A stretch of DNA of 20,000 nt from Rhizaria sp. SCN 62-66 (Eukaryota), in assembly GCA_001724265.1 (NCBI GenBank), contig MEDY01000124.1:50501-70500 (forward strand), in the 5' to 3' direction. The position numbers and the translations under genes are program-made. Of this stretch, positions 2,385 through 20,000 are shown one piece after another. Each line of letters begins with the position of its first letter. Position 1 is the stretch's first letter. Under the pieces are notes generated by a model. It was not told where the DNA came from. It worked only from the letters and a program-made list of their open reading frames with translations, and did not search any database.

Positions 2385-3404
2385 TCAGTGCGCCTTGCCG
2401 GCGCCGCTCTGCGTGAGCGCGGTGAGCTGCCGCTGCAGCAGGCGGTAGATGGGTAAGTAGACTGACCCGCCGAGCATGATATGCGCGCCACGCGTCGTCA
2501 TGCCCGTGAACCAGAACCGCATGCCGCGCTCGGCGCGGATCGCGCTCAGCGCGTGCAGCACGCCGCGGTACTTAGGCGCGGGCGCGCCGGGCAGGAGCCG
2601 CGACATGGACTGCGTCTGGATGATGGTCTTGGCCACGTCGAGCGGCTGCGTCAGCACGGTCGTGGTCGCGCCCGACAACGCACCCGCGAGCATCGACACG
2701 TGCGCAGAGTGCGAGCGGCCCTCCTTGCGCATCGCCTGGTCGCGCGCGAAGTAGGCCGTGCCGAAGCCCGCGACGGAGCCCGTGGTGAGGAGGTGCGTGT
2801 AGAAGTCGTTGCCGGACATCATGAGGCACACTACGGGCAGGTCACGCGCTAGGTTCGCCCACAGGCCCTGCCAGAGGCCGCCGACGCCGTCGCGCGAGAC
2901 AAGCGTGCGCAGCGCGTCGAAGGATGAGCGCGAGCGCGGCACGCCCTGGAGCGAGCCCTCAACCTGCATGCGCTCCTTGACCACCTCGAACGGGCACTTG
3001 ACGAACGTCACCAGCGCGCGCGAGCCGGCGAACAGCGCCGCGTACTTGGCGGCGTCCAGAGTGGACGCGTTCTTGTGCGCGGCAACGTCGCGGAACATCT
3101 CGTAGGTCGTCCACTGCACGGCCGCCAGCGGGGACTGCATGAGCCGCGGGCCGAGGCCGCGGTAGAAGGCGCGGACGCCTTCGCCGTAGATGCCGCGCAC
3201 GGCGTCCGAGACGTTGCGGTACTGCTTGGCACCGACGACGGCGCCGGAGAACTGCTGGCGCACCATGACGGTGACGACGGGATGCCAGATGGCGCCCGTG
3301 ATCATGGTCGTCACGAACGATGCCATGCCGCCCTTGGTGATGGCTGTCTTGCCACGCTCCATCAGCGTCGGCTGCGTCTTGGAAGCAGGGGCCGCGACAG
3401 ACAT
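2385..3404 (-). CDS. mitochondrial carrier family (SLC25) protein, 339 aa, probably amino-acid/SAM-type substrate
   Basis: Three ~100-aa repeats with signatures HPVVTVMVRQQ (degenerate), CPFEVVKERMQ and QPLDVAKTIIQ, followed by EGVRAFYRG, DGVGGLWQG and RGMRFWFTG. Helix 4 carries R-D (LARDLP), the contact-point-2 pair typical of amino-acid-type carriers. Confidence 0.95.
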   Translation of the reverse strand: MSVAAPASKTQPTLMERGKTAITKGGMASFVTTMITGAIWHPVVTVMVRQQFSGAVVGAKQYRNVSDAVRGIYGEGVRAFYRGLGPRLMQSPLAAVQWTTYEMFRDVAAHKNASTLDAAKYAALFAGSRALVTFVKCPFEVVKERMQVEGSLQGVPRSRSSFDALRTLVSRDGVGGLWQGLWANLARDLPVVCLMMSGNDFYTHLLTTGSVAGFGTAYFARDQAMRKEGRSHSAHVSMLAGALSGATTTVLTQPLDVAKTIIQTQSMSRLLPGAPAPKYRGVLHALSAIRAERGMRFWFTGMTTRGAHIMLGGSVYLPIYRLLQRQLTALTQSGAGKAH

Positions 3405-3870: not shown

Positions 3871-6800
3871 ATGCAACACCGCGCCCGCCACCTCGCTGGC
3901 GCCCTGCGCGCCGCAGTGCCCGCGGCGCCCGCACTGCCGTCCTCCGCGCTCCAATCCCCTGCCCTCGCGTCAACGGCGGGCCAGTCCCGCGCCATGTCGT
4001 CGTCGTCGTCGTCGTCGTTCTCGTCCTCGTCCTCCGGCCGCGGCGCGTCCCCCCGCAAGGGCTCTTCCGCGCGCATGCCCCCCACGTCGTCGGCGGACAT
4101 CGCGCAGCGCCAGTTCCGCCGCCCCGAGACCAGCGTGCTCGGCCGCTCCGGGGGCTCACTCAACAGCACCACCCCGGCCGAGCCCGAGGGCGCGGGCGAG
4201 AGCGAGGAAGAGGCGGACCCGGCGCTGGCGCTCGTGCAGCGCTACCTGGCGGCGGGCGACGTCGCGGGCGCCGAGGCCGCGCTGGCGATGGCCGTGCGCT
4301 CCACCGAGGACCGCCTGGGGCTCGACTACGTGGGTGGCGCGGGTACTCCGGCGACAGACGCTAAAGCCAACACAAACGTCCATCACTCATTGCAACAACA
4401 GCAGAAACAGACCGCTAAGCCCGCCAAACCTGCCACAACGAAGCTTTCTCAAACTGCTGCTGGCGCTAACGCTGCGAAGCCGCCTGTGACGCTGACGTCG
4501 CTGATGCAGGCTGCGCAGCGCGCGGAGCGCCGCGGGGGCGCGCTGGCAGCGCCGGTGCCGACGCAGGCTCAGCTGCGCGCGGAGCACGCGGCGCAAGGTG
4601 AGCGGCTTGCGCGCGGGGAGGACTTCGCTAGGGAGCAGACGCTGCACTTCGCTGCGCTCGGCCAACGCGCGGCCATGGGCACGGAGGAGGCGCTGCGGGC
4701 CGCCGCGCGCCGCAGGGCGGGGCTGCCCGCCGAGGAGGACGTCGACGACGACATTGACGACGATGTCGACGACGAGGTTGACTATGACGAGAACGATGAC
4801 GTCGAGGACGGCGCGTACGACAGTGATGGCCGCGCCGGCTCCGGCTCCGGCTACGACTCGGCCCTTGACTCCGGCGCCGACGCCGAGCTGGGCTCCGGCG
4901 TGGACTCGGCGGCCGAAAGCGGCGGGCTTATGAGCGGCTATGACTCGGACGCCCGCGCCGCCGACTCCGAAGTGCTGACGCGCATCGCAGAGGCCGGGCG
5001 CGCAGGCCGGCTTGGCAAGGACGCTGAGTGGTTCGACCCACGCCGGCCCGACGCGCTTGCGCGCAAGAGGGAGAAGGACGCCGCCGCCACCGCTAATACC
5101 AGTGCCAGTGCGGCCCGCCGCGGCGAGGTTGAGGAGGACGACGATGTGGACGCGGATGCGAGTGGGCGCGAGAGCTGGTTTGACTCTGCGATGCAGGCAG
5201 CCTCAGGCACTGAGGGCGAGCAACAGCGCAGCCAGCAGCAGCAGCGTGAGCAAAGCGACGCTGAGTGGCAGGCCCACGCGCGCGCCGCGATGTGGCACAA
5301 GGCCGGCAGCCCACCATCACAATCACCGGCTCACCCTGCGCAGTTATCGCGGCCGGAACAGGCCGCCGCCGCCGTGGCCGCGACCGCGCGCGCCACGGGC
5401 ACCACGGTCACGGCCCCGCCCGGCGAGCCCGCCTTCGCGTGGCCGCCGCCGCGCCGCTCGCTCGGCCTCTCCCGCCTTATGGCCTCTGCGCGCCCCCTGC
5501 CGTCCACCGCCTCAGCTGTCAGTGGCGCCGAAGGCACCGGCGCTAGCGGTGCTGGGTCGATGTCGGGCGTGGCGGCGCTGCGCCAGCTGCCCACCGCGGC
5601 CGCCCGGGCGGGAGTGCGCGGGGCCACAGCCGCGCTCGAGGCCGCGATGGCCGACATGGCCGCCGAGCTGGCCGCCGCGCGCACCGCGGCTGCCGCGGCC
5701 GCCGCTGAGGCCGCGGCGACGGGCGCCCCGGCGGCGGCGCCGTCGACCGCGGCCATCGCGCGCGCGCACGCCGTGGCGGCGGCGCTGACCGAGCTGTGCG
5801 CAGGGCTCGTCGCTGACGGCGCCGCGGACTCCGGGCTGCCGCCGCCGCGCCGCGCCGCCGCCGCCGCCGCGGGGCTGTCGCTGGACCCCGCGGAGCTGGT
5901 GCGCGAGTTCCAGGCCCACCGCGGCGCGCGCCTGGAGCACGAGGTCGCGCTTGGCGCAGACACCGACGGCGACAACGGCGGCGAGAGTGTGGCCGCAACT
6001 GTGGAGGCGGTGCGGGCCCCGGCGCTGTCGGCGCCCGCGCTGCCGTTCGAGCCCTTCGCGCCGTCGTTCGCGCGCAGCGACTCGGCGGCCGCACTCACTG
6101 CTTCGGCCGTGGCGGCGGCGGCTCCCACTCCGCGCGCCGCGCTGCTGGCCATGTCACCCGCCGCGGCCGCGTCGGCGCTGCGCGACGACCCGGCCTTGCT
6201 GACGATGCTGCGCATGCTCGACACCGCGGCTGCGAACGAGGCCCTCGGCGCCGCCAAGGGCAAGGGTGCGCGGAGCGACAAGGACGCGGCCGCGGCGGCG
6301 GGGACGCAGGTGGCCGTGCTGCGCGCGCTGCGGTCCGTGCTGCCGGCGACGTTCTCGCGCGTAGTGGCGACGATGGGCGCGCGCGGCGGGCGCGCGATGG
6401 CGCGCATGATGCAGGCCTCCGAGTCCGCGGCGGCGGCGGCGGCGCGGCGCGGGGCTGCGGCGCCCGACGCCGCGGCGGCCGCCAAAGAGGGCGCGCGCGC
6501 GACGGCCGCGCTGGCCAGCGAGCTGCGCAACATCGCCGCCAGCGAGGGCGCGACTGGCGCGCAGTTGCCGCCGGAGGTCGCGCGCGCGCTCGGCGTCGCC
6601 ACACCCGACGCCGAGGTCTCCCCCTCGCTGACTGGGGATTCGCAGGCGCATGCGCAGACACTTGAGTCAGACGAGGCCGCGGCGGTGCGGCGCGTGGCGG
6701 CGCTCATGGCGACGGACCGCGACGGCATCGTGGTGGATCTGGCCACAGAAGAACGCCGGCTCGCGCTCATGGCCGTCGAAGGGCTCTCACCGGCGGCCGC

Positions 6801-9800
6801 GGCCGCGCGGGCCATCAACGACGTCCACGGCGCCGACTCCGCCTCTGCTGCAGACGCCAGTGCGGACGGGGGCGAGGTCGTCGACGAGTACGGCGTGACC
6901 AAGGAGCAGCGGCAGCTGCAGGCGGCGCTGGTACAGTATGAGAACATGCTGCGTCGGCGCGTGATGCTGCTTGAGGCGGAGAAGGAGGCGCAGGCCACTG
7001 GCGCGCCGTTGATCGACGACCTGCGCACCCTGGCGTCGCGCATCGCGGCCGTGCGCGCCGATGTCAAGGACCGCCCGGAAGACTCGTCGCTGCTGCGGCG
7101 CGCCAACGAGCTGTACAAGCAGCTGGCCTTCGTGCAGCAAACGAAGCGGACGAACCCGACGCTCTACTACTGGCGCAAGTTTCTGGCCAACATCCCGCGG
7201 TCCGCGCGCGCTGACGCCATGGCGGCGCACGAGCTGCCGAACAACCCCATCGCGTGGGCCATCGAGACGGGCGAGCAGGAGGCCGCGCGCCGCGCCGCGC
7301 TCGCCGCGGGAGTGCCCGACGAGGAGTCGGCCGCGCGTCAGGACGAGACTGACAAGCCGCGGCTGACCCCGGAGATCGTCAAAGACGCGCTCACGCGGCT
7401 TGTGCGCCTGCGCCGCGACACCGCCGCGCTCGAGGCGCGCATCGAGCGCTCCGTGGCCGCGGGCGACGCCGCCGCGAAGCTGGCGAAGCGCGAGGGCCGG
7501 CCGCCCGCGCGCGCGCAGCGCGAGTCCGGCGGCACAAGCGCGGCCGAGGTAGAGCTCACGGAACACATGCGGTTCCTGTGGTCGCTGCGCGCTGACTGCG
7601 AGCTGGCGACGGCGGCGATCGAGCGCGACACGCGCGCCGAGCAGCGCGCGCTGCGGATGCGCGAGGTGCAGCGCGAGCTCAAACTTCTTGCCGGCTCGCA
7701 GGTCACGGATGCCGAGCGGCGCGTGGACGAGCTGCAAGAGCTCACGCGCACTGCGATGCTGGGCCGCAAGGCGCTGCGGTTCAACGTGACCGAGCTGGCC
7801 GAGGAGCGTGACGAGGCCGCCATGCACGGCGGGCACGTCGAGGCCCTCGTCGCGCCCAGCAAGTTCCGCCAGCGCGCCAACAAGACCGTCGCCGCGGGCG
7901 CCGCGGGGGCCACGGTCGCGTTCGTCGACCCGCTTCTCGCGCTCGCGCTGGCCGGGGATGATCCCGCTGCCGCTGCCGCCGCCACGGCCGGGCAGGCCGA
8001 CGCGTTCGGCTCCACGGCAGGCCGCGCGATGCCAGGCTCGGTTCAGGAGGCGCTGCAGCTGCAGGCGCGCGCGGTGCTGGCGTCTCCGACCGCCGCGGCC
8101 GCGTCCGCCGAGACTGCGGCGGCCGCCGCCGCCGCGGCGTCTGCGCTGCCGCGGTCCGAGGTCGCGCACCTCAAAGCGCAGGAGGCGCTGGCGCGCGCCG
8201 CCGAGGCAGAGGCGCGGCGCACAGTCATCACTGCGGCCGCGCAGGAGCACATCCTGCGGGCCGCGCAGCAGGAGCAGCAGGCGGGCGCGCCGACCACGGC
8301 TGCGCGCGCGAAGCTGACGCTGCGCGAGGTCGCGCCCGCGGCCGCGCGGCTGCTGTTCGGGCGCGTCGTTGGCGCGCACGGTGCGCGCGTGCTCGTGGAG
8401 CAGGTGGGCACGCGCGCCTACGCCAAGCACGCCATGTACTACGCGGGCACGCCCGTCGAACGCCTGCTGCGCGCTGTGGCGCCGCGCGCCGAGGACGAGG
8501 GCGAGGAGGCCGCCGCCGCCGCGGAGGCCGTGGCGCGCGCGCTCGACCTGCCCGGCGCCACCGCTGCGGCGCGGAATGCCGACAACGACGGCGAGATGGC
8601 CGCTGCCGATGCAGTGCTTGGCAATCGCCTTAAGACCTCCCAGCCCACTAATGACGCTGATGCCGAGGCTGATGCTGTCGCAGAGGCTCTGGAGCAGGGC
8701 GCCAGCGCCGGTGCAGTCAAGGCGGGCCGCCGCTGGGAGGCCGCACAGCGCCGGAACAACAACAACATCAAGTCACAGACTGCGGACGCCGAAAATGACG
8801 AGGACGTCGACGATGACAACGACGAAGAGCTCGACACCGACGCCGACAGCGCGACCGAGAGCGCTGTTTCTACTTACAAAGCGGGCGCGCGTCCGCTGTG
8901 GCAGTGCACCAAGTCGCGGCACATGCAGCTGCTGTGTGGCGACTATGTGCTCTTCGACCCGCACGCCGCGCGCGCGTGGTCCCAGTCGGCCGCGACCACG
9001 GCGGCCGCGGTCACCGCGCTGGGCGCTGCCGCCGACGGCGTCGTTAAGGTCGTCTTCAAGCGGCTCAACGAGCTCAAGCGCGGACTGGCCGTCAAGAAGC
9101 GCGGCACAGTGCTCTCGCAGCCAGCGTCAAGCATGGCGGCCAACGCGGACCACGTCGTGGTCTTGTGCGCGGCCGAGGGGCAGCCGCCGCTGTCGCCGTT
9201 CTTGCTCGACCGCTTCATCGCCATCGGCCAGCAGGCCAACGTGCCTGTGACGATTGTGTACAACAAGGTCGACCTGCTGGACACCGTCGCGGCGGCGGCG
9301 GAGGACTTCGAGCGCGAGCAGGCCCGTGCGCGGCTGCTGCGCGAGAAGAAGGTCAAGAACCACAAGTTGCGCCGCCAGATGCAGCGCGAAGACGCCGATG
9401 CCGACGTCGCTGTTGAGGATGACGCTCAATTGGAGAACGACGGCGAGGAAGAGGAGGAGTGGGACGAGGAGCAGTGGGAGGCGGCCGAGGCCGAGGACGC
9501 AGCGCAGCGCCGGCTCGCTCGTTGGGTGCGCAAGCGCGGCAAAGAGAGCACCAACGGGCGCCGCACGGCGTACTTGCCCGCCGAGGTGGACGCGCTGCTC
9601 GCGGCATACGAACAGCTCGGCCACCGCGTGATCCGCACGTCGGCGACGACGGGGCAGGGCGTGGACGAGCTGCGCGGCGTGCTGGACCGGTTCCACACGT
9701 CGCTGCTGCTGGGGCCCTCGGGCGCGGGCAAGAGCTCGCTGCTGAACCTGCTGCTGCCCGACACGCAGCTGCGCGTGAACCGGCTGACCGTGTCGGGCCA

Positions 9801-12800
9801 GGGCCAGCACACGACCACGGCGGCGAACCTGTACCGCCTGCCGTCGGGCGCCGCCATCGTCGACACGCCCGGCTCGCAGGGCTTCCTCCCCGACCTGCTC
9901 AATGCAGGCATGCTCGGCGTCCCCGGCGGGGCCGCGGGTGGCGAGGCCGCGGCCAGCACGCTGCAGCCCGGCGCGCCCGCCACCGCAGGCTCCGTGTCCA
10001 TGGCGGGTCCTGCGAGCTCGGCGCTAGTCGACGCGCAGGCGCTCGTGGCCTCAGTGGCCGGTTTGGGCAGGCTCTTCCCGGAGATCTCCCGCGCGAGCGC
10101 CTTCTGCCGCCTGGGCAACAAGTGTACGCACGTGCGCGAACCGGGCTGCGCGGTGAAGGAGCTCGTTGGCGTCGGCGCGGACCACAAGGCCGTGACGGTG
10201 TTCGACCTCTACCGCATGGACAAGCAGAGCAACGTATACGTGGCCAAGTTCTGGCAGGACCTCCGGTCGGGCGCGCTGCGGCCGCTGGCGTCGCTGGCGT
10301 CGCCGGACCCCGTGCTGGTGTTCGCCGCCAAGTGGTACCGCGACTGGGACGCCGGGCTGGCCTCGTCGCCGGCGCACAAGCCGCTCGACACGCACTCGCC
10401 CGCCGAGCTCAAGGTCATGGGTCAGCTTGCCGCCGCGACCGAGGCCGGCCGCAAGCTGGGCTCCGCGGCCAACCCCGGCTCGGACAAGCGCGGCGCGCGC
10501 GGCGACGTGGCCCCGCCGCGCGCGGCCGCCGCGATGCGCACCGCGCCCGTCGAGGCGGACTCGGAGCAGGCCATGGCGCTGGCGGGCGTCCCGCTGGGCG
10601 CTAGCGCCGAGGACGCGATGTTCGCCAAGGACGACGAGAAGATCCTCACGGAGCAGATGTCGCCGTCCCCGCAGCGCTTCGCGCAGGCCGCCGCGGCCGA
10701 CGCCGCCGACGCGGCCGCTGCGGCTGGCAAGCCGGATCCCTACGAGGGCTCGAGTCTGCGCAGCCGGCTGCTGGACGAGTCGGTGCTGGCGGCGCAGCGC
10801 GGGGACGCGCCGGGCGCCGACGCGCAGGACAAGGCGGCGCCCCCGCTGGGCGTGACGTCGCCAGAAGTGGTGCGCGAGCTGCTCGAGCGGCGCGCGCGGC
10901 GCGTGGCGCGCGATGTCGCCGAGATGGAGTTCGACCGCGACCTGTCCGCCGCGGAGGCCGCGCTGGACCGCATCGAGCGCGCCGAGGAGCGCAAGAAGCG
11001 CGCCGCGGTGCGGTCTACGGCCGGCATCCGCGGCGATCGCGATATCGAGGCCGATGAGGCTCTGGCCGAGGCCGAGGCCGAGGCCGAGGCGGAGGCGGAG
11101 GCTGCGGCGAAGTCAAAGGCACACGGTGGCGAGGTCGAGGCGTCCGAGGAGCAGCCGCCCAAGTCGTCGATGGCGCGCCTGTTCGCGGACATGGGCCGCG
11201 CGCCGTCGACGCTGGTGCGCATGCCGGGCATTCCCGCCAAGTACTACGCGCAGCAGCGCGAGGCGCAGGCCGCCGTTGACATCATGAACTCGAACCTCAA
11301 CGGCGATCATGATGACGCAGACGGTGGCGATTCCCTGTCGCCGAGCGGCGGCCGGCGCATCACCCCGGAGGCCACTGCCGAGGTCGCGTACGCGGCGCGC
11401 CGCAGCCCGGCTGCCGCCGCCGCCGCGGGCGTGTCCGTCGACCGCATGCGACTCGCGGACCGCGCCGCCGACGGCCGCGTCGTCGTGCGGCCCGTGCACA
11501 GCAAGTTCGACCGCCTGCTTTGGGAGAAGCTCTGGGCCGCGGCCGCCAGCGGCGCCAAGCCCGGCAAGCAGGCCGGCAGCAACACTATAGCCGTGCTCGC
11601 CCCCGCCAACACCTCCCCGACACGCGACGCCGACGCGGCCGCCGACTCCGCCGCGTCTGCCGGCAGCCGCGGCGGCGCGCTGGACGCGGCAGCGGAGCTC
11701 GGCTTTAGCGCCACGGGCCGCATGATGCGCGCGATGGACCGCGCGCGCCAACGCGCCTCCGAGGCCGGCGGCGACGGCGCGGACGCCGGCGTCGTCGTCG
11801 CGGGGGTGAGCCTCGACGCCTATCTGGCGGGCAAGCGCGCCGCCGACGGCGAGACGGTCGTGCTGCCATCACTCGCCGCCCTCGCGCGCGCGGGCTACGC
11901 CACCGCCGCGGACACCGCCGCAGACGGCGGCGCGGCCAAGCCCGGCAAGGGCAAGAGCACGCCGCTGTCGGCGCTGCCCATCGCGGACCCGGACGACGAC
12001 GACTTCGACGCCAACTTCACTGCCGGCGGCCGCGGGCGCACCAAGCGCGAGCGCCGCCTGGCCGCGCAGCAGGCGCAGCGCGACCAGCGCATGCGCGCGC
12101 TGCGCGCAGAGCTCGACCGCGTAGCCGCTGACGTCGAGGCCCAGCCTGCGCCCGTGACTCCCGCGGCTGCTGCGGCTGAGCCGGTGTCCGCGCCGCGCGC
12201 GGTGACCAAGACGTTCACGCCCTCGGCGACCGCTGCGCTGCGCGCGACGGTCGCTGGCGTTGTCCCGCTGCGCCCGCCAACTGCACTGCCAACCACGCAC
12301 GCGCTGCCCGTCACGCTGCACGCAGCGCTGCCGGCACTGGGCGGGCTCAAGCTGCCGACGGCGATGCGCCTGCCCTCGGCGGCTGCACTCCCCGTCGTCG
12401 TTGCCGCCGCCGCGCCGCCGAAGCCCACTGCGGGCGCTGCGGCGGTGAAGGTCGGCGAGTTCGAGGTGGAGGAGAGCGAGACGGAAATGCACGACGAGTC
12501 CCCCTTCTGGCGGATGCCGCGCGTCGCGCCGCTCCAACCCCACCTCAAGCGCGCCCCCGCCCCCGCCGCGGTCGCCACGGAGATCGGGCGCGAGAGCGAG
12601 CGCGATATGAGTGGCGTGCACATCTTCGACTACACGTCAGAGTCTGCGACGAACGCGGACGAGGACGCTGCGGCGCAGAGTAAGGCCGAGCTGAGCATGT
12701 TGAGCGGCCAGCGCGTGCCCGCCGGCGCAGCGCGCGGCCTGATGATTGCGCCCTCGCGCTACGAGAGCTACGTGCGGTTGCGCGGGATCCTCGCGGCGAC

Positions 12801-13365
12801 GACGGAGGCCCTGCGCACGCGCGGCCGGTCCAGCGCTAGCAAGAAGTTAGCCCGCGTGGAGCTGGAGACGGCGGCGGAGCGCGAGAAGGCCGAGATGAAG
12901 AAGTACAAGAAGGTTGCGCTCGCGCGCGCGCTGCGGCACGATAGCCGTGCGTTTGACGCGCTGGTCAAGCAGCAGGCCGCCAAGGAAAACGAGCTGCTGG
13001 GCGAGGGCTTCGACGCGACCGAGACGGTGCGCGCGCGCCTCGCAGTGACGCTGCACAACAGCGGCCAGGCTGTCGGCGCGAGCGCGAAGCAGGTCCGCGA
13101 CAGCGCCAAGAAGGGCCGCAGCGACAAGGTGATGACCGCGGAGCTCCGCACGAGCAGCAGCGGCAACGGCGGCGGCAGCGGCGGCGGCGATGGGGAGAGC
13201 TTCGGCATGGACGGCCACGATGACGCGGAGAAGGTGATGCGCGCGCACACGTACGAGGGCTCGGCTGAGGCCAACGAGGCGCGGGTGAAGCTTGGCGAGC
13301 GCGTGACGGGCATGGTCGGGCAGCGCGCGAATGCGACTGTTAAGTCGCTGCGTGAGAGCAAGTAA
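3871..13365 (+). CDS. rsgA: giant (~3,164 aa) RsgA/YjeQ-family circularly permuted GTPase with large low-complexity insertions and extensions; predicted mitochondrial
   Basis: Uninterrupted ORF; first in-frame ATG at 3871 coincides with the switch to GC-rich coding composition. Motifs in RsgA order: AANADHVVV (9136), G4 NKVD (9262), G5 TSA (9637), G1 GPSGAGKS (9712), G2 GQHTTT (9802), G3 DTPG (9862), Zn finger CRLGNKCTHVREPGC (10105-10149), OB-fold pieces at 8359-8400, 8896-8958 and 9037-9081, and IAPSRYESYVRL at 12745-12780. Confidence 0.9.
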   Translation: MQHRARHLAGALRAAVPAAPALPSSALQSPALASTAGQSRAMSSSSSSSFSSSSSGRGASPRKGSSARMPPTSSADIAQRQFRRPETSVLGRSGGSLNSTTPAEPEGAGESEEEADPALALVQRYLAAGDVAGAEAALAMAVRSTEDRLGLDYVGGAGTPATDAKANTNVHHSLQQQQKQTAKPAKPATTKLSQTAAGANAAKPPVTLTSLMQAAQRAERRGGALAAPVPTQAQLRAEHAAQGERLARGEDFAREQTLHFAALGQRAAMGTEEALRAAARRRAGLPAEEDVDDDIDDDVDDEVDYDENDDVEDGAYDSDGRAGSGSGYDSALDSGADAELGSGVDSAAESGGLMSGYDSDARAADSEVLTRIAEAGRAGRLGKDAEWFDPRRPDALARKREKDAAATANTSASAARRGEVEEDDDVDADASGRESWFDSAMQAASGTEGEQQRSQQQQREQSDAEWQAHARAAMWHKAGSPPSQSPAHPAQLSRPEQAAAAVAATARATGTTVTAPPGEPAFAWPPPRRSLGLSRLMASARPLPSTASAVSGAEGTGASGAGSMSGVAALRQLPTAAARAGVRGATAALEAAMADMAAELAAARTAAAAAAAEAAATGAPAAAPSTAAIARAHAVAAALTELCAGLVADGAADSGLPPPRRAAAAAAGLSLDPAELVREFQAHRGARLEHEVALGADTDGDNGGESVAATVEAVRAPALSAPALPFEPFAPSFARSDSAAALTASAVAAAAPTPRAALLAMSPAAAASALRDDPALLTMLRMLDTAAANEALGAAKGKGARSDKDAAAAAGTQVAVLRALRSVLPATFSRVVATMGARGGRAMARMMQASESAAAAAARRGAAAPDAAAAAKEGARATAALASELRNIAASEGATGAQLPPEVARALGVATPDAEVSPSLTGDSQAHAQTLESDEAAAVRRVAALMATDRDGIVVDLATEERRLALMAVEGLSPAAAAARAINDVHGADSASAADASADGGEVVDEYGVTKEQRQLQAALVQYENMLRRRVMLLEAEKEAQATGAPLIDDLRTLASRIAAVRADVKDRPEDSSLLRRANELYKQLAFVQQTKRTNPTLYYWRKFLANIPRSARADAMAAHELPNNPIAWAIETGEQEAARRAALAAGVPDEESAARQDETDKPRLTPEIVKDALTRLVRLRRDTAALEARIERSVAAGDAAAKLAKREGRPPARAQRESGGTSAAEVELTEHMRFLWSLRADCELATAAIERDTRAEQRALRMREVQRELKLLAGSQVTDAERRVDELQELTRTAMLGRKALRFNVTELAEERDEAAMHGGHVEALVAPSKFRQRANKTVAAGAAGATVAFVDPLLALALAGDDPAAAAAATAGQADAFGSTAGRAMPGSVQEALQLQARAVLASPTAAAASAETAAAAAAAASALPRSEVAHLKAQEALARAAEAEARRTVITAAAQEHILRAAQQEQQAGAPTTAARAKLTLREVAPAAARLLFGRVVGAHGARVLVEQVGTRAYAKHAMYYAGTPVERLLRAVAPRAEDEGEEAAAAAEAVARALDLPGATAAARNADNDGEMAAADAVLGNRLKTSQPTNDADAEADAVAEALEQGASAGAVKAGRRWEAAQRRNNNNIKSQTADAENDEDVDDDNDEELDTDADSATESAVSTYKAGARPLWQCTKSRHMQLLCGDYVLFDPHAARAWSQSAATTAAAVTALGAAADGVVKVVFKRLNELKRGLAVKKRGTVLSQPASSMAANADHVVVLCAAEGQPPLSPFLLDRFIAIGQQANVPVTIVYNKVDLLDTVAAAAEDFEREQARARLLREKKVKNHKLRRQMQREDADADVAVEDDAQLENDGEEEEEWDEEQWEAAEAEDAAQRRLARWVRKRGKESTNGRRTAYLPAEVDALLAAYEQLGHRVIRTSATTGQGVDELRGVLDRFHTSLLLGPSGAGKSSLLNLLLPDTQLRVNRLTVSGQGQHTTTAANLYRLPSGAAIVDTPGSQGFLPDLLNAGMLGVPGGAAGGEAAASTLQPGAPATAGSVSMAGPASSALVDAQALVASVAGLGRLFPEISRASAFCRLGNKCTHVREPGCAVKELVGVGADHKAVTVFDLYRMDKQSNVYVAKFWQDLRSGALRPLASLASPDPVLVFAAKWYRDWDAGLASSPAHKPLDTHSPAELKVMGQLAAATEAGRKLGSAANPGSDKRGARGDVAPPRAAAAMRTAPVEADSEQAMALAGVPLGASAEDAMFAKDDEKILTEQMSPSPQRFAQAAAADAADAAAAAGKPDPYEGSSLRSRLLDESVLAAQRGDAPGADAQDKAAPPLGVTSPEVVRELLERRARRVARDVAEMEFDRDLSAAEAALDRIERAEERKKRAAVRSTAGIRGDRDIEADEALAEAEAEAEAEAEAAAKSKAHGGEVEASEEQPPKSSMARLFADMGRAPSTLVRMPGIPAKYYAQQREAQAAVDIMNSNLNGDHDDADGGDSLSPSGGRRITPEATAEVAYAARRSPAAAAAAGVSVDRMRLADRAADGRVVVRPVHSKFDRLLWEKLWAAAASGAKPGKQAGSNTIAVLAPANTSPTRDADAAADSAASAGSRGGALDAAAELGFSATGRMMRAMDRARQRASEAGGDGADAGVVVAGVSLDAYLAGKRAADGETVVLPSLAALARAGYATAADTAADGGAAKPGKGKSTPLSALPIADPDDDDFDANFTAGGRGRTKRERRLAAQQAQRDQRMRALRAELDRVAADVEAQPAPVTPAAAAAEPVSAPRAVTKTFTPSATAALRATVAGVVPLRPPTALPTTHALPVTLHAALPALGGLKLPTAMRLPSAAALPVVVAAAAPPKPTAGAAAVKVGEFEVEESETEMHDESPFWRMPRVAPLQPHLKRAPAPAAVATEIGRESERDMSGVHIFDYTSESATNADEDAAAQSKAELSMLSGQRVPAGAARGLMIAPSRYESYVRLRGILAATTEALRTRGRSSASKKLARVELETAAEREKAEMKKYKKVALARALRHDSRAFDALVKQQAAKENELLGEGFDATETVRARLAVTLHNSGQAVGASAKQVRDSAKKGRSDKVMTAELRTSSSGNGGGSGGGDGESFGMDGHDDAEKVMRAHTYEGSAEANEARVKLGERVTGMVGQRANATVKSLRESK
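9133..10170 (+). other. RsgA GTPase core plus Cys3His zinc-finger domain
   Basis: Circularly permuted G4-G5-G1-G2-G3 order followed by FPEI...C-x5-C-x-H-x2-EPGCAV, diagnostic of RsgA/YjeQ/CpgA rather than other cpGTPases (RbgA, YqeH/NOA1, LSG1). Confidence 0.95.
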
Positions 13366-13388
13366 GCAAGTAAGCAAGCGAGCAAGCA
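13357..13388 (+). repeat. imperfect 8-bp tandem repeat (AGCAAGTA)2-AGCAAGCG-AGCAAGCA spanning the stop codon
   Basis: Read directly from the sequence; the TAA at 13363-13365 lies inside the array. Confidence 0.85.
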
Positions 13389-14121
13389 ATGAATGATGCA
13401 TGTGAGTGATCACACGCCTGACTGGTAACCAAAGCCACATGCTCACGCGACGACATGCTGTTTGGCGACAATTAAACGCACGTATTTATTATAACTATTC
13501 TTAATAACATTTAAGTTGATGCCTTAGGCTGAGATATGGCCTTTGTGTACGCAATAAACGACGAATCTTTAGTTACGCATAACAGTGAAGTTTGAGTTGA
13601 TATCGACACATATCCAGTCTTAATGACATGTTATTAGCAAGCATACTAGTGAGTTCTATAGCTATATGCGTATTGGTGATGTATACTACTTGTTTGTAAC
13701 AATTTGAACGAAATACAACTCGTTTTGTGAAAATGTGTCAAGCGGTCAGGTTTTGTGGTTGGCTGGTCGATGTATAAGCCTCGATTCAAACTAAGATCAG
13801 AGAATGTAGAGTCCGTTAATATGGACACGGTGCTATCATTAACGTAATCCAGCTGGTTTCTACTTTGTATTTAAGTCTTGCATGTTCACTACTCTATTTT
13901 GAAGCGCTGGGGTCCGGGAAATCTCGCTGATTCCAGAGTCGGGCCTCGTAATGATCAACTCCAAAACCTATGCCTCTAAACGCTTCATTTATCGAAGCAT
14001 CGTCCATTTTTGTTTACCACATATCAATTCTTTTTTCTACGTTGGTATCCTTTCTCAGTTGATTTTATCTTGCCTCTTTGTACCTTCTTTTCCTTCTTCC
14101 TCATCAGAGCATTCCGTTGGG

Positions 14122-15108
14122 ATGCAGCCGCACCACAACTGGAGCAGGCCACCCCCCGGTGGCAACAACTACGGCACGCCCCAGTTCCCCCACCCGGGCG
14201 CGCCCCACCCACCTTCCGGCTTGCCGCAGCACTACGCCTCCGGCCCCGCGCATGCGCACGCGCAGCATACGCCGCCGCAGTTCGGCGTCTCCCCGCCCCG
14301 CCACCACTACCACGGCGACCACAGCTACAGCCAGCAGCAGCCCCAGCAGCAGCAATACCAGCAGCAGTATCCGCCGCAGCCGCAGCATCACGGCGGGCCC
14401 CCGCGCCGCGACTACGGGGACCGGCCTGACTCGTACCCGCGCCGCAACGACCGCCAGAGCACCGCCAACTCTCACGGGTACGGCGCCGGGTACGGCGGCG
14501 GCTCCGGCGGCGGCGGCTACGGGGGTGGTCACAACCAGCAGAGCCAAGGCTTCGGAAGCCAGCGCCAGCAGCAGGGCGACGGCCAGGGCCACGGCCGCCA
14601 CAGCGCCAGCCCCGGCGGTCACAGTGGTCGTGGCGGGTATGACAACCACAACGGCCACCGCGGCGGTCGCGGCGGCGGCGGCGGCGGCGGCCGTGGCGGC
14701 GGCGGCGGCGGCGACGGCAGGCGCGGCGGGCGCGGCACCGGCGGTGCTGGCGGCGGCGGCGGGATTCGGCTTGAGGGCGGGCGCTCGCTGGCGCTGCCGA
14801 GCATGGCGCAGGACCCCTGGCTGCGGCACGGGCTGCTGACGGCAGACCGCGTGCGCACGCTCGACGCAGAGTGGACGGCGCGCAAGGCCGCCGGCGCCGG
14901 GGCCGTCGCGCACGCGCTCGGGACGCTGCCCGTCGCCGCGGCGACTGGGACCGCGACGGCTGGGGCGCGGGACGCGCGCGGGCAGAGTCAGCAGGCGGCT
15001 GCTGTCGCTCCTGTTGTGGCTGTTTCTGCGACTGCAGTGACGGAAGGGGGTGGCAAGGATGCGAGTGGGGAGATTGAGCTGGATATGTACGACATGTTCC
15101 AGACATGA
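14122..15108 (+). CDS. 328-aa Gly/Gln/His/Pro/Tyr- and RGG-rich disordered protein, possibly MPLKIP/TTDN1-like
   Basis: ATG at 14122 marks the onset of GC-rich coding composition. Prion-like N-terminus, RGG/GGC repeats, then PSMAQDPW (14797-14820) resembling the PSMLEDPW signature of MPLKIP/TTDN1; acidic C-terminal GEIELD. The CDS is well supported; the family call is tentative. Confidence 0.72.
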   Translation: MQPHHNWSRPPPGGNNYGTPQFPHPGAPHPPSGLPQHYASGPAHAHAQHTPPQFGVSPPRHHYHGDHSYSQQQPQQQQYQQQYPPQPQHHGGPPRRDYGDRPDSYPRRNDRQSTANSHGYGAGYGGGSGGGGYGGGHNQQSQGFGSQRQQQGDGQGHGRHSASPGGHSGRGGYDNHNGHRGGRGGGGGGGRGGGGGGDGRRGGRGTGGAGGGGGIRLEGGRSLALPSMAQDPWLRHGLLTADRVRTLDAEWTARKAAGAGAVAHALGTLPVAAATGTATAGARDARGQSQQAAAVAPVVAVSATAVTEGGGKDASGEIELDMYDMFQT

Positions 15109-15592
15109 GCTTTCAAGTTCTATTGCTGAAGGTTATTGCGATCCAAGTGTTCTTAAGACGAACTGTTCATGCCATACAAAGCGAGTGGCCTTAGTAACGG
15201 TGTTGCGTCAGCAGATACAGCAGGATACGTCGCGAAAACTAAGGTCCTTTAGGTGTCCACGATTATGTCAAGATATAATCAGGCCGAATATGTATATAAA
15301 TACAATACGCTCTCTAGTTTTCGCCGAGTTCCGCTTGGTGCACTGCGCTTACAGTCGTTTTGAGCACCCACTGCTACTGCAGTCCGTTCTCAGCCAACTG
15401 GCCAGGGAAACGGCAGTTCAAACGGCATTGACTGTAACGCAATTGAAACATCGTGAAATCTAAATGGGGCAAGTTTTTCTGAATTAAAAAGCTGCTATTT
15501 ATTTATTTTATATTTTGAAATTTCTATCATCATGCTAATTCTCCTGTTCTTACCAACCTCACTCATCCTTCTTTTCACTTCTCCAGAGAGCG

Positions 15593-17839
15593 ATGTCAGC
15601 TTCGTCTGCCGATGCCCTCCAGGCGATGCGCGCAAGCATCAAGCGTGGTGGCATTGACCTCATGGCTGCTTTCCGCGCTTTCGATAAGTACGTCATGCTC
15701 TTCTCGTATTTCCCTTTTTCTATCACACCCCACGCCAACAAAAAAAACAAACACCAAGCTCACTCGTCCCTGAACAACACTCCCTCTGATCTCTCGTTGC
15801 TCCCCAGCCTGCGTCTTGGCCGCGTCGACTTCTTCCGCGTGCGCCCGATCCTGGGTACGAGCGGCGTGCCCATGCCATCCGCGGAGGCGCTCGACGCGAT
15901 CATGGCCGACTACAAACATCCCGCTGACAAGACCAAGTTCGACTACTACCGCTTCGTTAAGGAGCTCGAGGACGTGCCTTCCTTCCATGCCGCCGTCCCG
16001 GCCCCGCGCGCCTTCACCGCGACGGCCGCGGCCGCGCTGCCGGCCAAGGTGCTCGCGCAGACCGAGGCCACGCTGGCGCGCCTGCAGGCCGTCGTGGCGC
16101 GCCTCCGCATGGACATCACGATCTTCTTCCAGGCGCACGACCGCTTCCGCAACGGCACGTGCCCGCCGCCCAAGTTTGGCTCCGTGCTCACCTCCTGCGG
16201 ACTCGTCGTGTCCGCCGCGGAGCTCGCCGCGCTGCTGCAGCGCTTCCACGTCTCCGAGACGGCGACAGACTACAAGTCGTTCCTCGCGCTCATCACAGCG
16301 CCCCCCGCGTCGCAGGACCGTGACCGCTACGGCGGCGACGGCGCTGACACCAGCGGGCCCGCGTCGCTCTCGGCGAGCTTCTCCCCCGCCAAGCAGTCGA
16401 TGTCGCGCACCTCCGCGCCGCCGCGCTCGACCTTCGACCAGCCCGTGGCCGTCGCCACCGACGTGTTGACAGTGCTCCGCAAGGCGCACGCACTCTTCTC
16501 GGCCGCGCGCGTGCAGCTCGACCCCTGCGCCAACTACTTCCGCGACCACGACCCGCTGAACCGCGGCGCCGTTGAGACGGGCGTGTTCGCGCGCGTGCTC
16601 TCCTCGGCCTACGCGCTCGCGTTGAGCCCGAGGGAGATCGCGGTGCTGACCGAGCAGTATCTGCTCACGCCGCCTGGCGCGTCACCCGCGTTCGTCGACT
16701 ACCGCGCCTTCGTCGCTGACGTCGCGATCGCAACGGCGGGCGGCGACGTCTTCGCGCTCGAGCGCGCGCCCACGCGTGATCTCACGGCGCCCGCGCCCGC
16801 CTGGTCCCCGCACGAGGAGAACGCCGCCTCTTTCGACGGCAGCACCGACGCCGGCTCCGGCTCCGGATCTGCTGGTGGCGGCGCCGGCGCGGGGCGCGTG
16901 CAGGAGCTACTCGCGGCGCTCGCGGTTGCGGGCTTCGCGCGGCGGCTGGAGCTGGAGCCGTCCTTCACGGACCGCGACCCGCTGCGCAAGGGCTGCGTAA
17001 ACGCGCGCCAGTTCCAGACGGTCATCTCCGAGATTCCCGCCGCGGGCGCGTTCCTCGCGCGCGACTGGGCCGCGCTGCTGGCGGCGTACCAGAAGGGCGC
17101 GCTGGGCCACGATTACCGCGCCTTCCTGGGCGACCTGCGCGCGCAGCAGCGGCGCGTGCAGGAGGGCCACCAGGAGGTCGTCGCGCGCGCGCAGGCGCAG
17201 GGGTTGTCGTCGTACGAGCTGCCGCCTTCGGCCGCGCTCACGCACGCGCGCCAGACCATGGGCGTGCGCGAGCTTGGCGGCGCCACGGCCGTGGGCTCGG
17301 GCGCCGCGCCGCGCGCCGCGGGCACGGCCGCGATCAAGGGTTATGGCCCCGTCGTCGGCGGCAGCACGCCCGGCGCGCGCGCGCACGACCCTTTCCCGAG
17401 CAACATCAAGAACGCCACGCTGCCCCGCGGCGCCGGCGGCGTGTACGGCTCCGGCGGCGCCGAGAGAGTCGAGGTCGCGGGTGTGCCCGAGGGCGCCGCG
17501 GGCGGGCTGTTCAGCTCGATGGCGGTGGGCGAGGACCTGGGCTCCGCGCTGGCCGCGCGCACCGATGCCGTGGTGCGCAAGGTGCGCGCGCTTGTGGCCA
17601 GCCGCCGCGTGCCGCTGCGCACGCACCTGGCGGCCGGCGACCGCGCTGGCTCTGGGCTGGTCGACCTCAACGTCGTGTGGCAGGCGCTGGCCAACAACGG
17701 CGTTGCTGTCAGCCAGGAAGAGCTCGAGCTGCTCGCGCTGCGCTACGAGCAGCCCGGAGCCGGCAAGAGCTTCCAACAGGGCGGGTCCGGCGCGCGCATC
17801 GCGTACGCGCAGCTCTGCGACGATGTGCAGTCCGCGTAA
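15593..17839 (+). CDS. multi-repeat degenerate EF-hand protein (EFCAB6-like architecture), exons 15593-15687 and 15808-17839, 708 aa
   Basis: Five repeats with loops FRAFDNLRLG (after splicing), FQAHDRFRNG, FRDHDPLNRG, FTDRDPLRKG and LAAGDRAGSG, each followed by an E..xL...[YF] helix and a [DA]Y..[FL] motif (FDYYRF, TDYKSF, VDYRAF, HDYRAF, IAYAQL). Confidence 0.85.
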   Translation: MSASSADALQAMRASIKRGGIDLMAAFRAFDKYVMLFSYFPFSITPHANKKNKHQAHSSLNNTPSDLSLLPSLRLGRVDFFRVRPILGTSGVPMPSAEALDAIMADYKHPADKTKFDYYRFVKELEDVPSFHAAVPAPRAFTATAAAALPAKVLAQTEATLARLQAVVARLRMDITIFFQAHDRFRNGTCPPPKFGSVLTSCGLVVSAAELAALLQRFHVSETATDYKSFLALITAPPASQDRDRYGGDGADTSGPASLSASFSPAKQSMSRTSAPPRSTFDQPVAVATDVLTVLRKAHALFSAARVQLDPCANYFRDHDPLNRGAVETGVFARVLSSAYALALSPREIAVLTEQYLLTPPGASPAFVDYRAFVADVAIATAGGDVFALERAPTRDLTAPAPAWSPHEENAASFDGSTDAGSGSGSAGGGAGAGRVQELLAALAVAGFARRLELEPSFTDRDPLRKGCVNARQFQTVISEIPAAGAFLARDWAALLAAYQKGALGHDYRAFLGDLRAQQRRVQEGHQEVVARAQAQGLSSYELPPSAALTHARQTMGVRELGGATAVGSGAAPRAAGTAAIKGYGPVVGGSTPGARAHDPFPSNIKNATLPRGAGGVYGSGGAERVEVAGVPEGAAGGLFSSMAVGEDLGSALAARTDAVVRKVRALVASRRVPLRTHLAAGDRAGSGLVDLNVVWQALANNGVAVSQEELELLALRYEQPGAGKSFQQGGSGARIAYAQLCDDVQSA
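15688..15807 (+). other. spliceosomal intron (120 nt, phase 2, no in-frame stop)
   Basis: Donor GTACGT (same as the 281 intron), CTGAT branch-like motif at 15786, pyrimidine tract and CCCCAG ending at 15807; low-GC interior; removal restores a D-x3-G EF-hand-like loop matching the other repeats. Confidence 0.85.
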
Positions 17840-19095
17840 GCAAGTATCAGTACAGCTGCGTGTATATGCAACTCTTTTCGTGCATGCTTTTTGTTTTTTT
17901 ATTCGCCGGTGTCAGTTTATTTTGCAGTCTTGAGTTTTATCATATGTGTCTTGTATAGTCTCGATCAAATATGCGCGCGAATTTTCAATGATCGCCCTCG
18001 TTGCGTCAATAAATAGTTTTGTGATAAAATAGGATCGAGAGCGGTTCCGGCGTAAAGTCTCCTTCGTCAGGGATTGAGACATAAATAACACTTTCACAAC
18101 ATAGTATAAGAGGATAAAGTACGACTGTAAATCTAAGTCACCATATCAAACGTTGAATACTTTTGGCGATTATTCTGTTGAGACTTAGCTGCAAAACGAT
18201 TTTTCTTCTTGGAGTGAGCGGAGGGTATTTCTGTGAGAAACTTTGGGTCCACGCGATATCCACCCTCTGCCTGGAGACTTGGAGTTCAAAAAGGAGCAAG
18301 CTTTCCTTTTCATGCAGTTAAGGGCTGGAGGGCTCTTGCGACGGACTTTTGAATCTGTGGCTTGTCATTATTGTTGACCGTAAGCGGTCGTAACGTTGAT
18401 ACGTTAATGTAACTGACACGAAGTACCAGGTTTTATCTGTGTGCTTTTATTATCCCCTGATTATCTTTGTGGTGATCGTGAAATCCAAGTTTCGAGTTTG
18501 TTGTCACCCAAAGTATGGGGCAGCAGCGGGCGCACGTGGACGCCTTCGGTCGTAGCGCAGTAGGTGACATGACAGAAGTGCAACGCGAGCATGCCCGCAA
18601 TTACGCCGCCAGCGACTCCGCTCTCGTCTTTATCGCCGACGGTCTCAAACCCGGCCTCAGTCGCCGACGGGACCGTTGCGGGGCATGAGCGGCGTGTCGG
18701 ATGGGCGCGACATCAACTGTGCCTCTATGATTGAAATGATGATCACATAACGGAGTGGTTGTCACGTGTCACAAGCTTTGTAAAGCACTAACGATGAATC
18801 TATATAAACTGCATTGGCTTTGTACTTCTGTCCCACAACCATGTTCTCTTTGTTGGAGTTAGAGGATCACTCTCAAACATGCCTCTTAAACGCAAGCTTC
18901 CTGTTAGTTAACCGTAAGCACATGTTGAACATACTCCCTGCTTACCACCCCCACTTATCACGACAAATACCCCTTTTACGTGTTTTCCCCCCACTTTGAA
19001 CACGTCTCTGTGCCGGTTGTATTACCCTTCGCATGTTTCTCTTCATGTCCGCCTTTCATCGTCCTCCAACACAGTTTGACGCGTGCGTCGCAACG

Positions 19096-20000
19096 ATGGC
19101 ATCCCACCACCGCGACCATGACCAGTCTCTCCGTCTAACGGCTATGTTTCTGCTGTTGACATTCGCGTGCTGTTTCTGCAACCTCGTCTCGGCTCTTCCC
19201 ACACTGGCGTCATTCCGCGTGACTTTGGCTGAGGCTGACCCGATGTTGCGCAGCCTTTATCCAGGTTTCACTTGGTACAACATAACCTCTCTTCTGCCAA
19301 ATGCGACGAACGGTGTCTTAAGGATGCGCTGCAATGGCGCGCCAGACGTTCTTCGCTTTATTTCGGGCATTCAGGGTTCTTTTTTTCCGACCGATCCGAT
19401 GCCAGTCGGAGCAACGGTGTGGGAAAAACCCAACACTCCGGCGGACATAACCTACATGTCAATTGTTTACCGCGCTGCGACAACGGAGGATGTGCTGTCA
19501 TGTTCGATTTTTACCCACGAGGAGCAGTACAGCTTACCAGTGAGTCTATTATTCAGCAAAAACCTCTGCGGCGTGTGGCGCAGGTCACGGTCTCCACGAC
19601 AGGAACGACATTCACCATTCCGGACGAGGCGAACGCGAGGCATCTGTGCTCACGCACAGACAAGTACGAGATTGCGGGCCCTGAATTGCCAACATTTGCG
19701 CTTACAACAGCGACCGCGGCATATTTCACCATGACTAAGACGACGACGCCAACGATTACATATGTCATGGTGCCAAAGTCAGACGTCTTCTCATCGACAC
19801 TCGCGCCGGAGCTGACAAGTTCGTCCGTGATGCCGGGCGCGAATGTCACTGTGACGCTGTACTCAAGTGGCCGCACCATTGTCCTTACGCCCGCGGCGCC
19901 GACCTTTGTGTACGTCACCAACACAGACGTGAACAACTTCGCGACATCCAAATGGAGTCTCGCGCTTTCGCCCACAATCTACTCGGACTGGATCATCGCC
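19096..20000 (+). CDS. 3'-partial secreted/cell-surface, Thr/Ser-rich beta-strand-like protein with a frame change near 19500-19583 (short intron or indel)
   Basis: Signal-peptide-like MFLLLTFACCFCNLVSA (ATG at 19096 or 19144); N-glycosylation sequons NIT, NAT, NVT. Protein-like sequence continues in the -1 frame (VTVSTTGTTFTIPDE...SPTIYSDWIIA), open to the window end; GTGAGT at 19540 with frame-restoring CAGs at 19556 and 19583. Confidence 0.6.

Follow-up and report, generated by a model that had tools for sequence, protein, structure and literature searches.

The 20,000-nucleotide (nt) stretch studied here (positions 50,501 to 70,500 of the forward strand of contig MEDY01000124.1, Rhizaria sp. 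SCN 62-66, assembly GCA_001724265.1; hereafter the window) encodes a homologue of the GTPase RsgA/YjeQ that is 3,164 amino acids (aa) long (P0001; window 3871..13365, + strand, from an ATG start to a TAA stop). P0001 is a genuine, intact member of the RsgA/YjeQ family of extraordinary size; so extreme a form of this familiar enzyme is undescribed. We consider it likely that P0001 is an organelle-targeted RsgA orthologue, the organelle being most likely the mitochondrion, and that it is the product of a nuclear gene of an uncultured, intron-poor, GC-rich protist. Judging from its sequence, its most likely role is an ordinary one, that of a late checkpoint of the organellar, probably mitochondrial, small ribosomal subunit. 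By homology, P0001 would work as RsgA does, clamping the decoding-centre region of the nearly mature organellar small subunit, checking that subunit and then leaving it upon GTP hydrolysis. Its extra bulk is mostly Ala-rich, of low complexity and probably disordered, a kind of sequence found in other genes of this genome, and we regard most of it as tolerated expansion and not as a proven scaffold.

Bacterial RsgA, as described in the sections of PMC9032327 cited here, is a three-domain protein of ~33 kDa that binds the decoding centre and departs upon GTP hydrolysis. Its motif order is G4-G5-G1-G2-G3, its Zn-finger motif reads Cx(F/Y)xxCxHxx(E/D)xxC, and its C-terminal helix is essential for RsgA-promoted release of RbfA, as reported for E. 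coli. P0001 shares with the bacterial proteins (E. coli, 7BOI chain W; P. aeruginosa, 6H4D) all three domains and their order, the Zn knuckle and the RYxSY helix, with 33-34% identity in its aligned core and sequences of gammaproteobacterial type as the nearest. Every motif is intact in the circularly permuted order G4-G5-G1-G2-G3: after GRVV of the OB fold at aa 1497 come NKVD (G4) at aa 1798, TSA (G5) at aa ~1925, GPSGAGKS (G1) at aa 1948, GQHTT (G2, with its His retained) at aa 1978, DTPG (G3) at aa 1998, the Zn knuckle C-x5-C-x-H-x5-C at aa 2079-2093 and RYESY of the C-terminal helix at aa 2963. The first Zn spacer, C-x5-C, is one residue longer than in bacterial RsgA, and Leu occupies the F/Y position. 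The C, C, H and C columns, which hold the four predicted Zn ligands, are invariant across 124 aligned sequences, and so are the Lys of NKxD, P-loop residues, a switch-I Thr, and the Asp and Gly of G3. Both OB blocks (aa 1494-1548 and 1676-1740) can be aligned with the consensus of bacterial RsgAs, the fold being split by an insertion of ~127-165 aa.

Family models lead to the same assignment. With a cut-off of 30 bits, the Pfam family PF03193 (RsgA_GTPase) scores 123.1 bits on P0001, and three further Pfam rows are generic P-loop families under their cut-offs; TIGR00157 scores 112 bits against a cut-off of 100, and no other family of circularly permuted GTPases is the best match. A hidden Markov model (HMM) built from 108 normal-size RsgAs matches P0001 at E 3e-61, in colinear blocks at aa 1680-1811, 1904-2007 (119 bits), 2064-2101 and, weakly, 2958-2971. 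When aa 1481-2143 were compared with PDB sequences by phmmer, all 12 distinct matches were RsgA/YjeQ/EngC proteins, including the plant chain 9evt_7, a weak match (E 9.6e-11) compared with bacterial RsgA (E 8.7e-26). Other circularly permuted GTPases (YqeH/NOA1, YlqF/RbgA/MTG1, Nog2, Lsg1) fit less well: the YqeH model TIGR03597 reaches 26.2 bits against a cut-off of 297.4, and the structural match is to the GTPase domain only (Nog2, Lsg1, RbgA and YqeH, Z 11-15.6 over ~130-156 residues). An initial annotation, made from the sequence, had described an intact GTPase (all G motifs, the G2 His and four Zn ligands) about ten times larger than normal, and motif positions and family scores bear this out. 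It had also placed all RsgA elements in order within one uninterrupted open reading frame (ORF), on which motifs, HMM blocks and the third-position GC content (GC3) of successive bins agree.

P0001 has very few relatives of comparable size. An exhaustive phmmer search of 1.84 billion protein representatives gave 8,353 matches at E <= 0.001 and a single one at E <= 1e-30, the 1,840-aa protein P0002 (E 1.4e-78), which is the only other giant; the remaining 149 among the matches listed are 195-690 aa long. P0002 was again the only giant in a narrower homologue search. A word-based search with aa 1480-2980 found no homologue among 7,999 scored candidates, Ala-rich words having probably swamped it. 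Of 8,000 candidates scored in a search for shorter relatives, 275 matched at E <= 1e-20; the best 120 of these 275 look bacterial (those with names are mostly from Vibrio and other gammaproteobacteria), and the top one is the bacterial-like P0156. Two mid-size relatives come from short contigs. P0061 (690 aa) combines a presequence-like start with an OB insertion and a displaced last helix; in P0062 (459 aa, probably incomplete at its N-terminus) there is a G4-G5 insertion of acidic character, and the tail is basic. P0002, P0061 and P0062 are 1.7, 4.6 and 6.9 times shorter than P0001, with 13-18% of low complexity against 35%.

Residues 1001-2162 of P0001 are colinear with P0002, at 26% identity overall and 33% in the core. 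Three insertion sites (OB, G4-G5 and post-knuckle) are common to the two giants, and so are two modules, one of ~110 aa in the N-terminal extension and one of ~60 aa after the knuckle; P0002 lacks the G3-Zn insertion and has nothing matching aa 1-1000 or 2163-2957 of P0001. Since the 1,840-aa orthologue also has them, these three sites are inherited, as is a portion of the N-terminal extension.

The predicted fold agrees with the family assignment. An AlphaFold2 model of P0001 aa 1485-2103, built from a 114-row alignment, has a mean predicted local distance difference test score (pLDDT) of 71.7 and a predicted template modelling score (pTM) of 0.69. The pLDDT exceeds 90 in the conserved blocks, where the OB blocks are drawn as beta strands, and falls below 50 in the OB insertion (model residues 73-184), in the middle of the G4-G5 insertion and in the G3-Zn insertion; as modelled, the core insertions lie between conserved structural blocks. 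When VIA-align was run over Foldseek's top 1,000 PDB chains, ranks 1-14 were all RsgA/YjeQ/YloQ. Rank 1 was the 30S-bound E. coli RsgA (7boi_W), with Z 28.3, a root-mean-square deviation of 2.4 Å and 281/314 residues superposed, starting at chain residue 34. The core is thus predicted to take the RsgA fold. The model of P0002 aa 1075-1840 (pTM 0.71) matches the same chain even more completely (Z 31.9, 306/314 residues, chain residues 34 to 344). Since this alignment runs up to residue 344, the displaced C-terminal helix of P0002, modelled with a pLDDT of ~94, is predicted to dock as the bacterial one does.

The C-terminal helix deserves separate attention. In P0001 it lies at aa 2958-2975 (12742..12795), beyond an 855-aa insertion that separates it from the Zn knuckle, and taken alone it is the weakest element of the assignment (-1.3 bits; independent E-value 0.098 with two targets and 0.2 with four targets). 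RYESY of P0002 stands 121 aa past its knuckle, and in P0061 the equivalent RYRSY stands ~200 aa past it (independent E-value 0.01 with the HMM). We accept the assignment because the motif is displaced in both P0002 and P0061 and because the P0002 helix docks in the model. That such a helix would be retained across an 855-aa insertion argues for retained function.

Around these conserved elements, P0001 carries a great deal of added sequence. Bacterial RsgA has ~300-350 aa; measured against a consensus of bacterial RsgAs, the additions in P0001 are a ~1,493-aa N-terminal extension, a 189-aa C-terminal tail and five insertions of ~165, ~20-25, 97, 56 and 855 aa, the last of which splits the Zn domain. 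These lengths closely match those given initially. All features are on the + strand. The protein begins with a presequence-like segment, so called from its composition, rich in Arg, Ala and Ser (aa 1-75, 3871..4095), followed by a stretch of the N-terminal extension for which P0002 shows no detectable equivalent and which has 50% low complexity and 27% Ala (aa 76-1000, 4096..6870) and by a part that is colinear with P0002 573-1087 (aa 1001-1493, 6871..8349). Within the latter, comparison with P0002 delimits a better conserved module at aa ~1018-1130 (6922-7260). The first strands of the OB fold (aa 1494-1548, 8350..8514) are highly similar to P0002; they are separated by an acidic, Ala-rich insertion of low model confidence (aa 1549-1675, 8515..8895) from the second part of the fold (aa 1676-1740, 8896..9090), which includes the ~20-25-aa extra loop. 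In the GTPase domain, the G4 half (aa 1750-1806, 9118..9288) is followed by a charged insertion at a site common to P0002 and P0062 (aa 1807-1903, 9289..9579) and then by G5, G1, G2 and G3 (aa 1904-2007, 9580..9891). A Gly/Ala-rich insertion, not in P0002 (aa 2008-2063, 9892..10059), leads to the Zn-knuckle region (aa 2064-2103, 10060..10179). The 855-aa insertion opens with a lineage-specific post-knuckle module that is conserved with P0002 1636-1694, has 0% low complexity and is helical in the P0002 model (aa 2104-2162, 10180..10356). The rest of that insertion has 40% low complexity and no counterpart elsewhere (aa 2163-2957, 10357..12741). Past the displaced helix comes a basic, helical C-terminal tail, the first ~40 aa of which resemble the P0002 tail (aa 2976-3164, 12796..13362).

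Of these additions, the charged G4-G5 insertion (window 9289-9579; ~10790-11150 of L001, the locus that encodes P0002) looks the most structured: the models of both giants draw it as a long antiparallel hairpin of helices that juts out of the GTPase domain, its base being predicted with fairly high confidence.

What the added sequence does is the point on which the initial annotation and our reading part. Its proposal of an intact organellar, probably mitochondrial, RsgA stands as likely; the two further parts, a giant scaffold and a divergent, protein-rich mitoribosome, are unsupported and remain speculation. By a simple entropy mask, 35% of P0001 is of low complexity (50% of aa 1-1000), compared with 13% of P0002 and 4.5% of bacterial RsgAs; Ala alone makes up 23% of the protein. 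Neighbouring ORFs of the window reach 44%, 53%, 14% and 4%. Since neighbouring genes share this feature, much of the gap between 1,840 and 3,164 aa looks like genome-wide low-complexity growth. The conserved modules are candidates for function, although searches of Pfam and the ESM Atlas gave neither a domain nor a similar protein for them.

Such candidates allow a more ambitious proposal, in which the group of P0001 would be a clade of proteobacterial-type RsgA, so far unrecognised, in heterotrophic protists and the conserved additions (N-terminal module, helical G4-G5 hairpin, post-knuckle module and basic tail) would be working parts of a lineage-specific checkpoint of the mitoribosomal small subunit. 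With the Zn domain pulled apart, the RbfA-releasing helix would then sit on a long tether, and the tail may block the mRNA channel, by analogy with the unrelated tail of plant RsgA. We regard this combination as possible but unlikely.

That the extensions and insertions as a whole are functional and make RsgA a giant scaffold, recruiting or organising other factors as an unusually protein-rich mitoribosomal small subunit is assembled, we think quite unlikely. The three insertion sites and the ~110-aa and ~60-aa modules that are conserved in both giants (26-33% identity) speak for it, as do the ordered helical hairpin that the G4-G5 insertion forms in both models and the precedent of lineage-specific extensions of assembly factors acting on mitoribosomes, such as the plug of plant RsgA described in the cited part of PMC12672651. 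However, most of the extra mass is of low complexity and not conserved, with aa 1-1000 and 795 aa of the big insertion having no counterpart in P0002; similar expansions occur in unrelated neighbouring genes, and the insertions have low model confidence. The N-terminal extensions of P0001 and P0002 gave no usable match in the ESM Atlas, no Pfam domain was found in the extensions, and a phmmer search with the C-terminal tails of P0001 and P0062 gave no meaningful match among PDB sequences. Kinetoplastid genes are arranged in polycistrons. The GC-rich, intronless ORFs of the window would suit a trypanosomatid, a reading that we rejected because its genes alternate in strand at a spacing of roughly 0.5 kb. 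The window is not kinetoplastid-like in its layout, its genes lying on strands + - + + + with spacers of 466-585 base pairs (bp), which does not favour the divergent, protein-rich mitoribosome first suggested.

The organelle was approached through a phylogeny and through the N-terminus. A quick maximum-likelihood tree was built from 95 rows and 310 columns, the two giants being joined by 79 named bacterial RsgAs and by 14 long representatives without names; the bacterial rows are an arbitrary sample, obtained from a scan with an 8-row alignment that gave at least 600 stretches and 80 bacterial loci, and the plant mitochondrial RsgA 9EVT is not among the rows. P0001 and P0002 are sisters (Shimodaira-Hasegawa-like approximate likelihood ratio test, SH-aLRT, 99) and join P0061 and P0062 (SH-aLRT 77). 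These four eukaryote-like rows nest in a clade of 10 Pseudomonadota rows (SH-aLRT 97), of which those labelled to class are all Gammaproteobacteria. Forcing the four to group with Cyanobium and three Melainabacteria made the tree 64.9 log-likelihood units worse and was rejected by the approximately unbiased (AU) test (p-AU 0.00028). The first 60 aa of P0001 contain 5 Arg and Lys, no Asp or Glu, and 19 Ser and Thr, the first acidic residue being at 76. Basic, hydroxylated and acid-free N-termini extend over 75 residues in P0001, 30 in P0002 and 27 in P0061, and none of the three has a hydrophobic, signal-like core (highest 12-aa hydropathy of P0001, 1.34). This presequence-like N-terminus, together with a proteobacterial and not cyanobacterial affinity, makes a mitochondrial location of P0001 plausible, and tree position and N-terminal composition are the reasons why it would be favoured over a plastid one. 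On present sequences, the P0001 group is a small, undescribed eukaryotic clade of proteobacterial-type RsgA.

The alternative of a plastid RsgA (cYjeQ), belonging to an alga or a secondarily non-photosynthetic protist and acting on the plastid 30S subunit, has the known eukaryotic proteins in its favour. In the cited sections of PMC5224878, the eukaryotic YjeQ proteins surveyed are plastid proteins that group with cyanobacteria, and bioRxiv 10.1101/225052 describes, in the part cited, AtRsgA as chloroplastic. Complementation of an E. coli rsgA deletion has been tested with AtRsgA. As P0001 is predicted to be, AtRsgA/cYjeQ is nuclear-encoded and organelle-targeted, and it matures a bacterial-type small subunit. 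The P0001 clade, in contrast, does not group with cyanobacteria in the AU test (a comparison with one true cyanobacterial row), its eukaryote-like rows standing with Pseudomonadota, and P0001 has no hydrophobic core of the signal-peptide type. The sequencing runs that contain the window sequence are labelled activated sludge and wastewater. We therefore hold a plastid protein to be very unlikely.

A mitochondrial RsgA has a known parallel that the initial annotation overlooked: RsgA is known on the plant mitoribosome (PDB 9EVT). The annotation's statement that animal and fungal mitochondria are not known to use RsgA agrees with PMC12672651 for yeast and human, the two cases named as missing it in the part cited. 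As far as the cited sections of two papers go, eukaryotic RsgA is on record only in plastids (PMC5224878) and, from 2025 on, in the mitochondria of plants (PMC12672651). The cauliflower mitochondrial protein bears, according to the same part of PMC12672651, a C-terminal extension of 66 aa that plugs the mRNA channel. It is likewise eukaryotic, with a lineage-specific C-terminal extension, and acts late on the mitochondrial small subunit; structurally, its chain 7 in 9EVT matches the models with Z 21.8 (P0001) and 27.3 (P0002). It differs in having 496 aa, and its 66-aa tail has no phmmer similarity to the 189-aa tail of P0001, although short helical tails may have diverged too far for such a comparison to reveal any. 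Our literature search, conducted on papers without their supplements, found none on a protist RsgA or a giant RsgA. Papers on kinetoplastid and diplonemid mitoribosome assembly describe no RsgA homologue in the parts available: PMC10325924 has no occurrence of RsgA, EngC or YjeQ there, and PMC8784144 none of EngC and one of YjeQ.

It could also be asked whether the size of P0001 is an artefact of misassembly through GC-rich repeats, of merged genes or of retained introns. The ATG at 3871 is the first in-frame start of a frame already open from 3604, and the ORF continues without any break for 3,164 codons to the TAA ending at 13365. GC3 lies between 0.76 and 0.97 in 21/21 full bins of 150 codons, compared with 0.47 in the 450 nt upstream and 0.44 downstream, and the sequence changes character, in third-position GC, exactly at the ATG. 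As GC3 is high in every bin, the 9.5 kb appear to be coding throughout in a single frame, insertions included, and the bins reveal no apparent intron-like or spacer-like segment within 3871-13365. Tandem Repeats Finder reported 21 arrays in the gene, all of <=66 nt, and the bulk of P0001 is therefore not a recent repeat expansion.

Independent sequence supports the same architecture. A scan of metagenomes with two clade-specific peptide patterns matched 109 stretches and gave one relative, L001, a part of a 302-kb metagenome contig that encodes P0002 exactly and is compact, with uninterrupted long ORFs on both strands and ~52% GC. In the window, a mitochondrial-carrier gene (Pfam Mito_carr, E 2e-43; 2385..3404, - strand) lies head-to-head with the RsgA gene; in L001, a carrier gene (5117-6343, - strand) lies head-to-head with that of P0002, with 50% identity between the carriers over 309 aa. 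With P0002 on L001 having the same insertion sites and the same carrier neighbour, two independent assemblies agree on the architecture. RNA is consistent with the gene model as well: 0.34 of the sampled words occur in X1, a polyA metatranscriptome run, against only 0.06 in run X2, which was set aside, and eight of the X1 contigs, of 268-608 nt, are colinear on the P0001 ORF. Three of these fall within the 855-aa insertion (10323-10629, 10756-11023 and 11163-11529) and two in the non-conserved N-terminal extension (5941-6358 and 6554-6891); stretches of the ORF without RNA contigs carry no weight here. Apparent intron joints were discounted as repeat artefacts: in the 15 listed of 20, the shorter side measures 20-27 nt and falls in GC-rich repeats, and the ends do not consistently read GT..AG.

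For an artefact speak the origin of the window in a metagenome contig, the 21 short repeat arrays, the many false-looking joints at GC-rich repeats, and the fact that the exact P0001 protein is not in a collection of 15 billion proteins, although its neighbours are. Against these stand the frame and codon bias, unbroken for 9.5 kb, the RsgA elements that flank every insertion in order and in frame, the same architecture and neighbour in the L001 assembly, and contigs from other runs that are colinear on parts of the ORF, the big insertion among them. In our judgement, an artefact of size is extremely unlikely. We give almost no credence to a neofunctionalised GTPase that kept the RsgA fold and lost its ribosome role, which the extreme divergence in size and the scores of NF008931 and NF008932 under cut-off would suggest, whereas the ribosome-facing elements (OB strands, switch I, C-terminal helix) are all conserved and the model superposes on the 30S-bound conformation over 281/314 residues.

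Several observations count against an organellar, probably mitochondrial, RsgA of this size. The NCBIfam equivalog models of RsgA stay far under their cut-offs (NF008931, 119.7 against 360; NF008932, 78.9 against 483). The AlphaFold2 models were guided by bacterial alignment rows and the RsgA fold was partly built in, for which reason the structural match is a consistency check and not independent proof. The tree is quick, its 79 bacterial RsgAs are arbitrary and no row is labelled Alphaproteobacteria; the group used in the AU test was named after the tree had been seen and has only one true cyanobacterial row. The RNA support comes from assembled contigs, none of which spans the gene, and their library may include DNA. 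Finally, ~1,700 aa of P0001 (76-1000 and 2163-2957) have no relatives, and the length of these parts rests on a single metagenome assembly.

Of six isolated differences in other runs, four are synonymous third-position changes and two are Thr/Ala exchanges, a pattern that gives a small hint of constraint in the extensions. One contig of the polyA library has a cluster of substitutions and four one-base indels, with a net change of zero, at 11199-11232; this is either an in-frame variant stretch in the big insertion or a mis-laid repeat.

The neighbourhood of the gene adds some further observations. The carrier-RsgA microsynteny is kept between two quite divergent organisms. In the PDB, the carrier matches UCP and AAC only; its second and third signature motifs resemble, we presume, those of S-adenosylmethionine carriers. 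The other four window ORFs compared had no match in L001, and no evident motif is common to the stretches that separate the carrier gene from the RsgA gene in the two loci. Scans with Rfam and for tRNAs gave no matches in either the window or L001. In L001, another very large ORF, of 1,806 aa and with no Pfam family (12312-17732, - strand), lies directly downstream of the P0002 gene and is convergent with it, at a spacer of 76 bp. The coding-like window ORFs 365-1891 and 13951-15108 (both +; GC3 0.85 and 0.78, 44% and 53% low complexity) have no Pfam family and are filled with poly-Gln and Gly/Arg-rich runs. They probably start elsewhere than at the listed codons, which are GTG at 365 and, within AT-rich sequence, ATG at 13951. 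The coding-like ORF 15593-17839 (+; 748 aa, GC3 0.89, no Pfam match) occurs on 4 contigs in the protein collection and contains, by eye, several repeats of a short unit of the F..D....G......F type. From 18001 to 20000, the GC content is 0.47-0.54 and the ORFs 19033-19734 and 19272-20000 do not have the GC3 signature (0.57-0.60); probably this part does not code for protein or is sequence of another kind.

If our reading of P0001 is true, a proteobacterial-type RsgA was either retained or acquired by some protists for use in mitochondria. Its fold would then tolerate very large insertions at five defined sites, and one of these sets the Zn knuckle apart from the functionally important C-terminal helix. 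Proteins of 459, 690, 1,840 and 3,164 aa would form a series that represents a natural experiment in the growth of an assembly factor.

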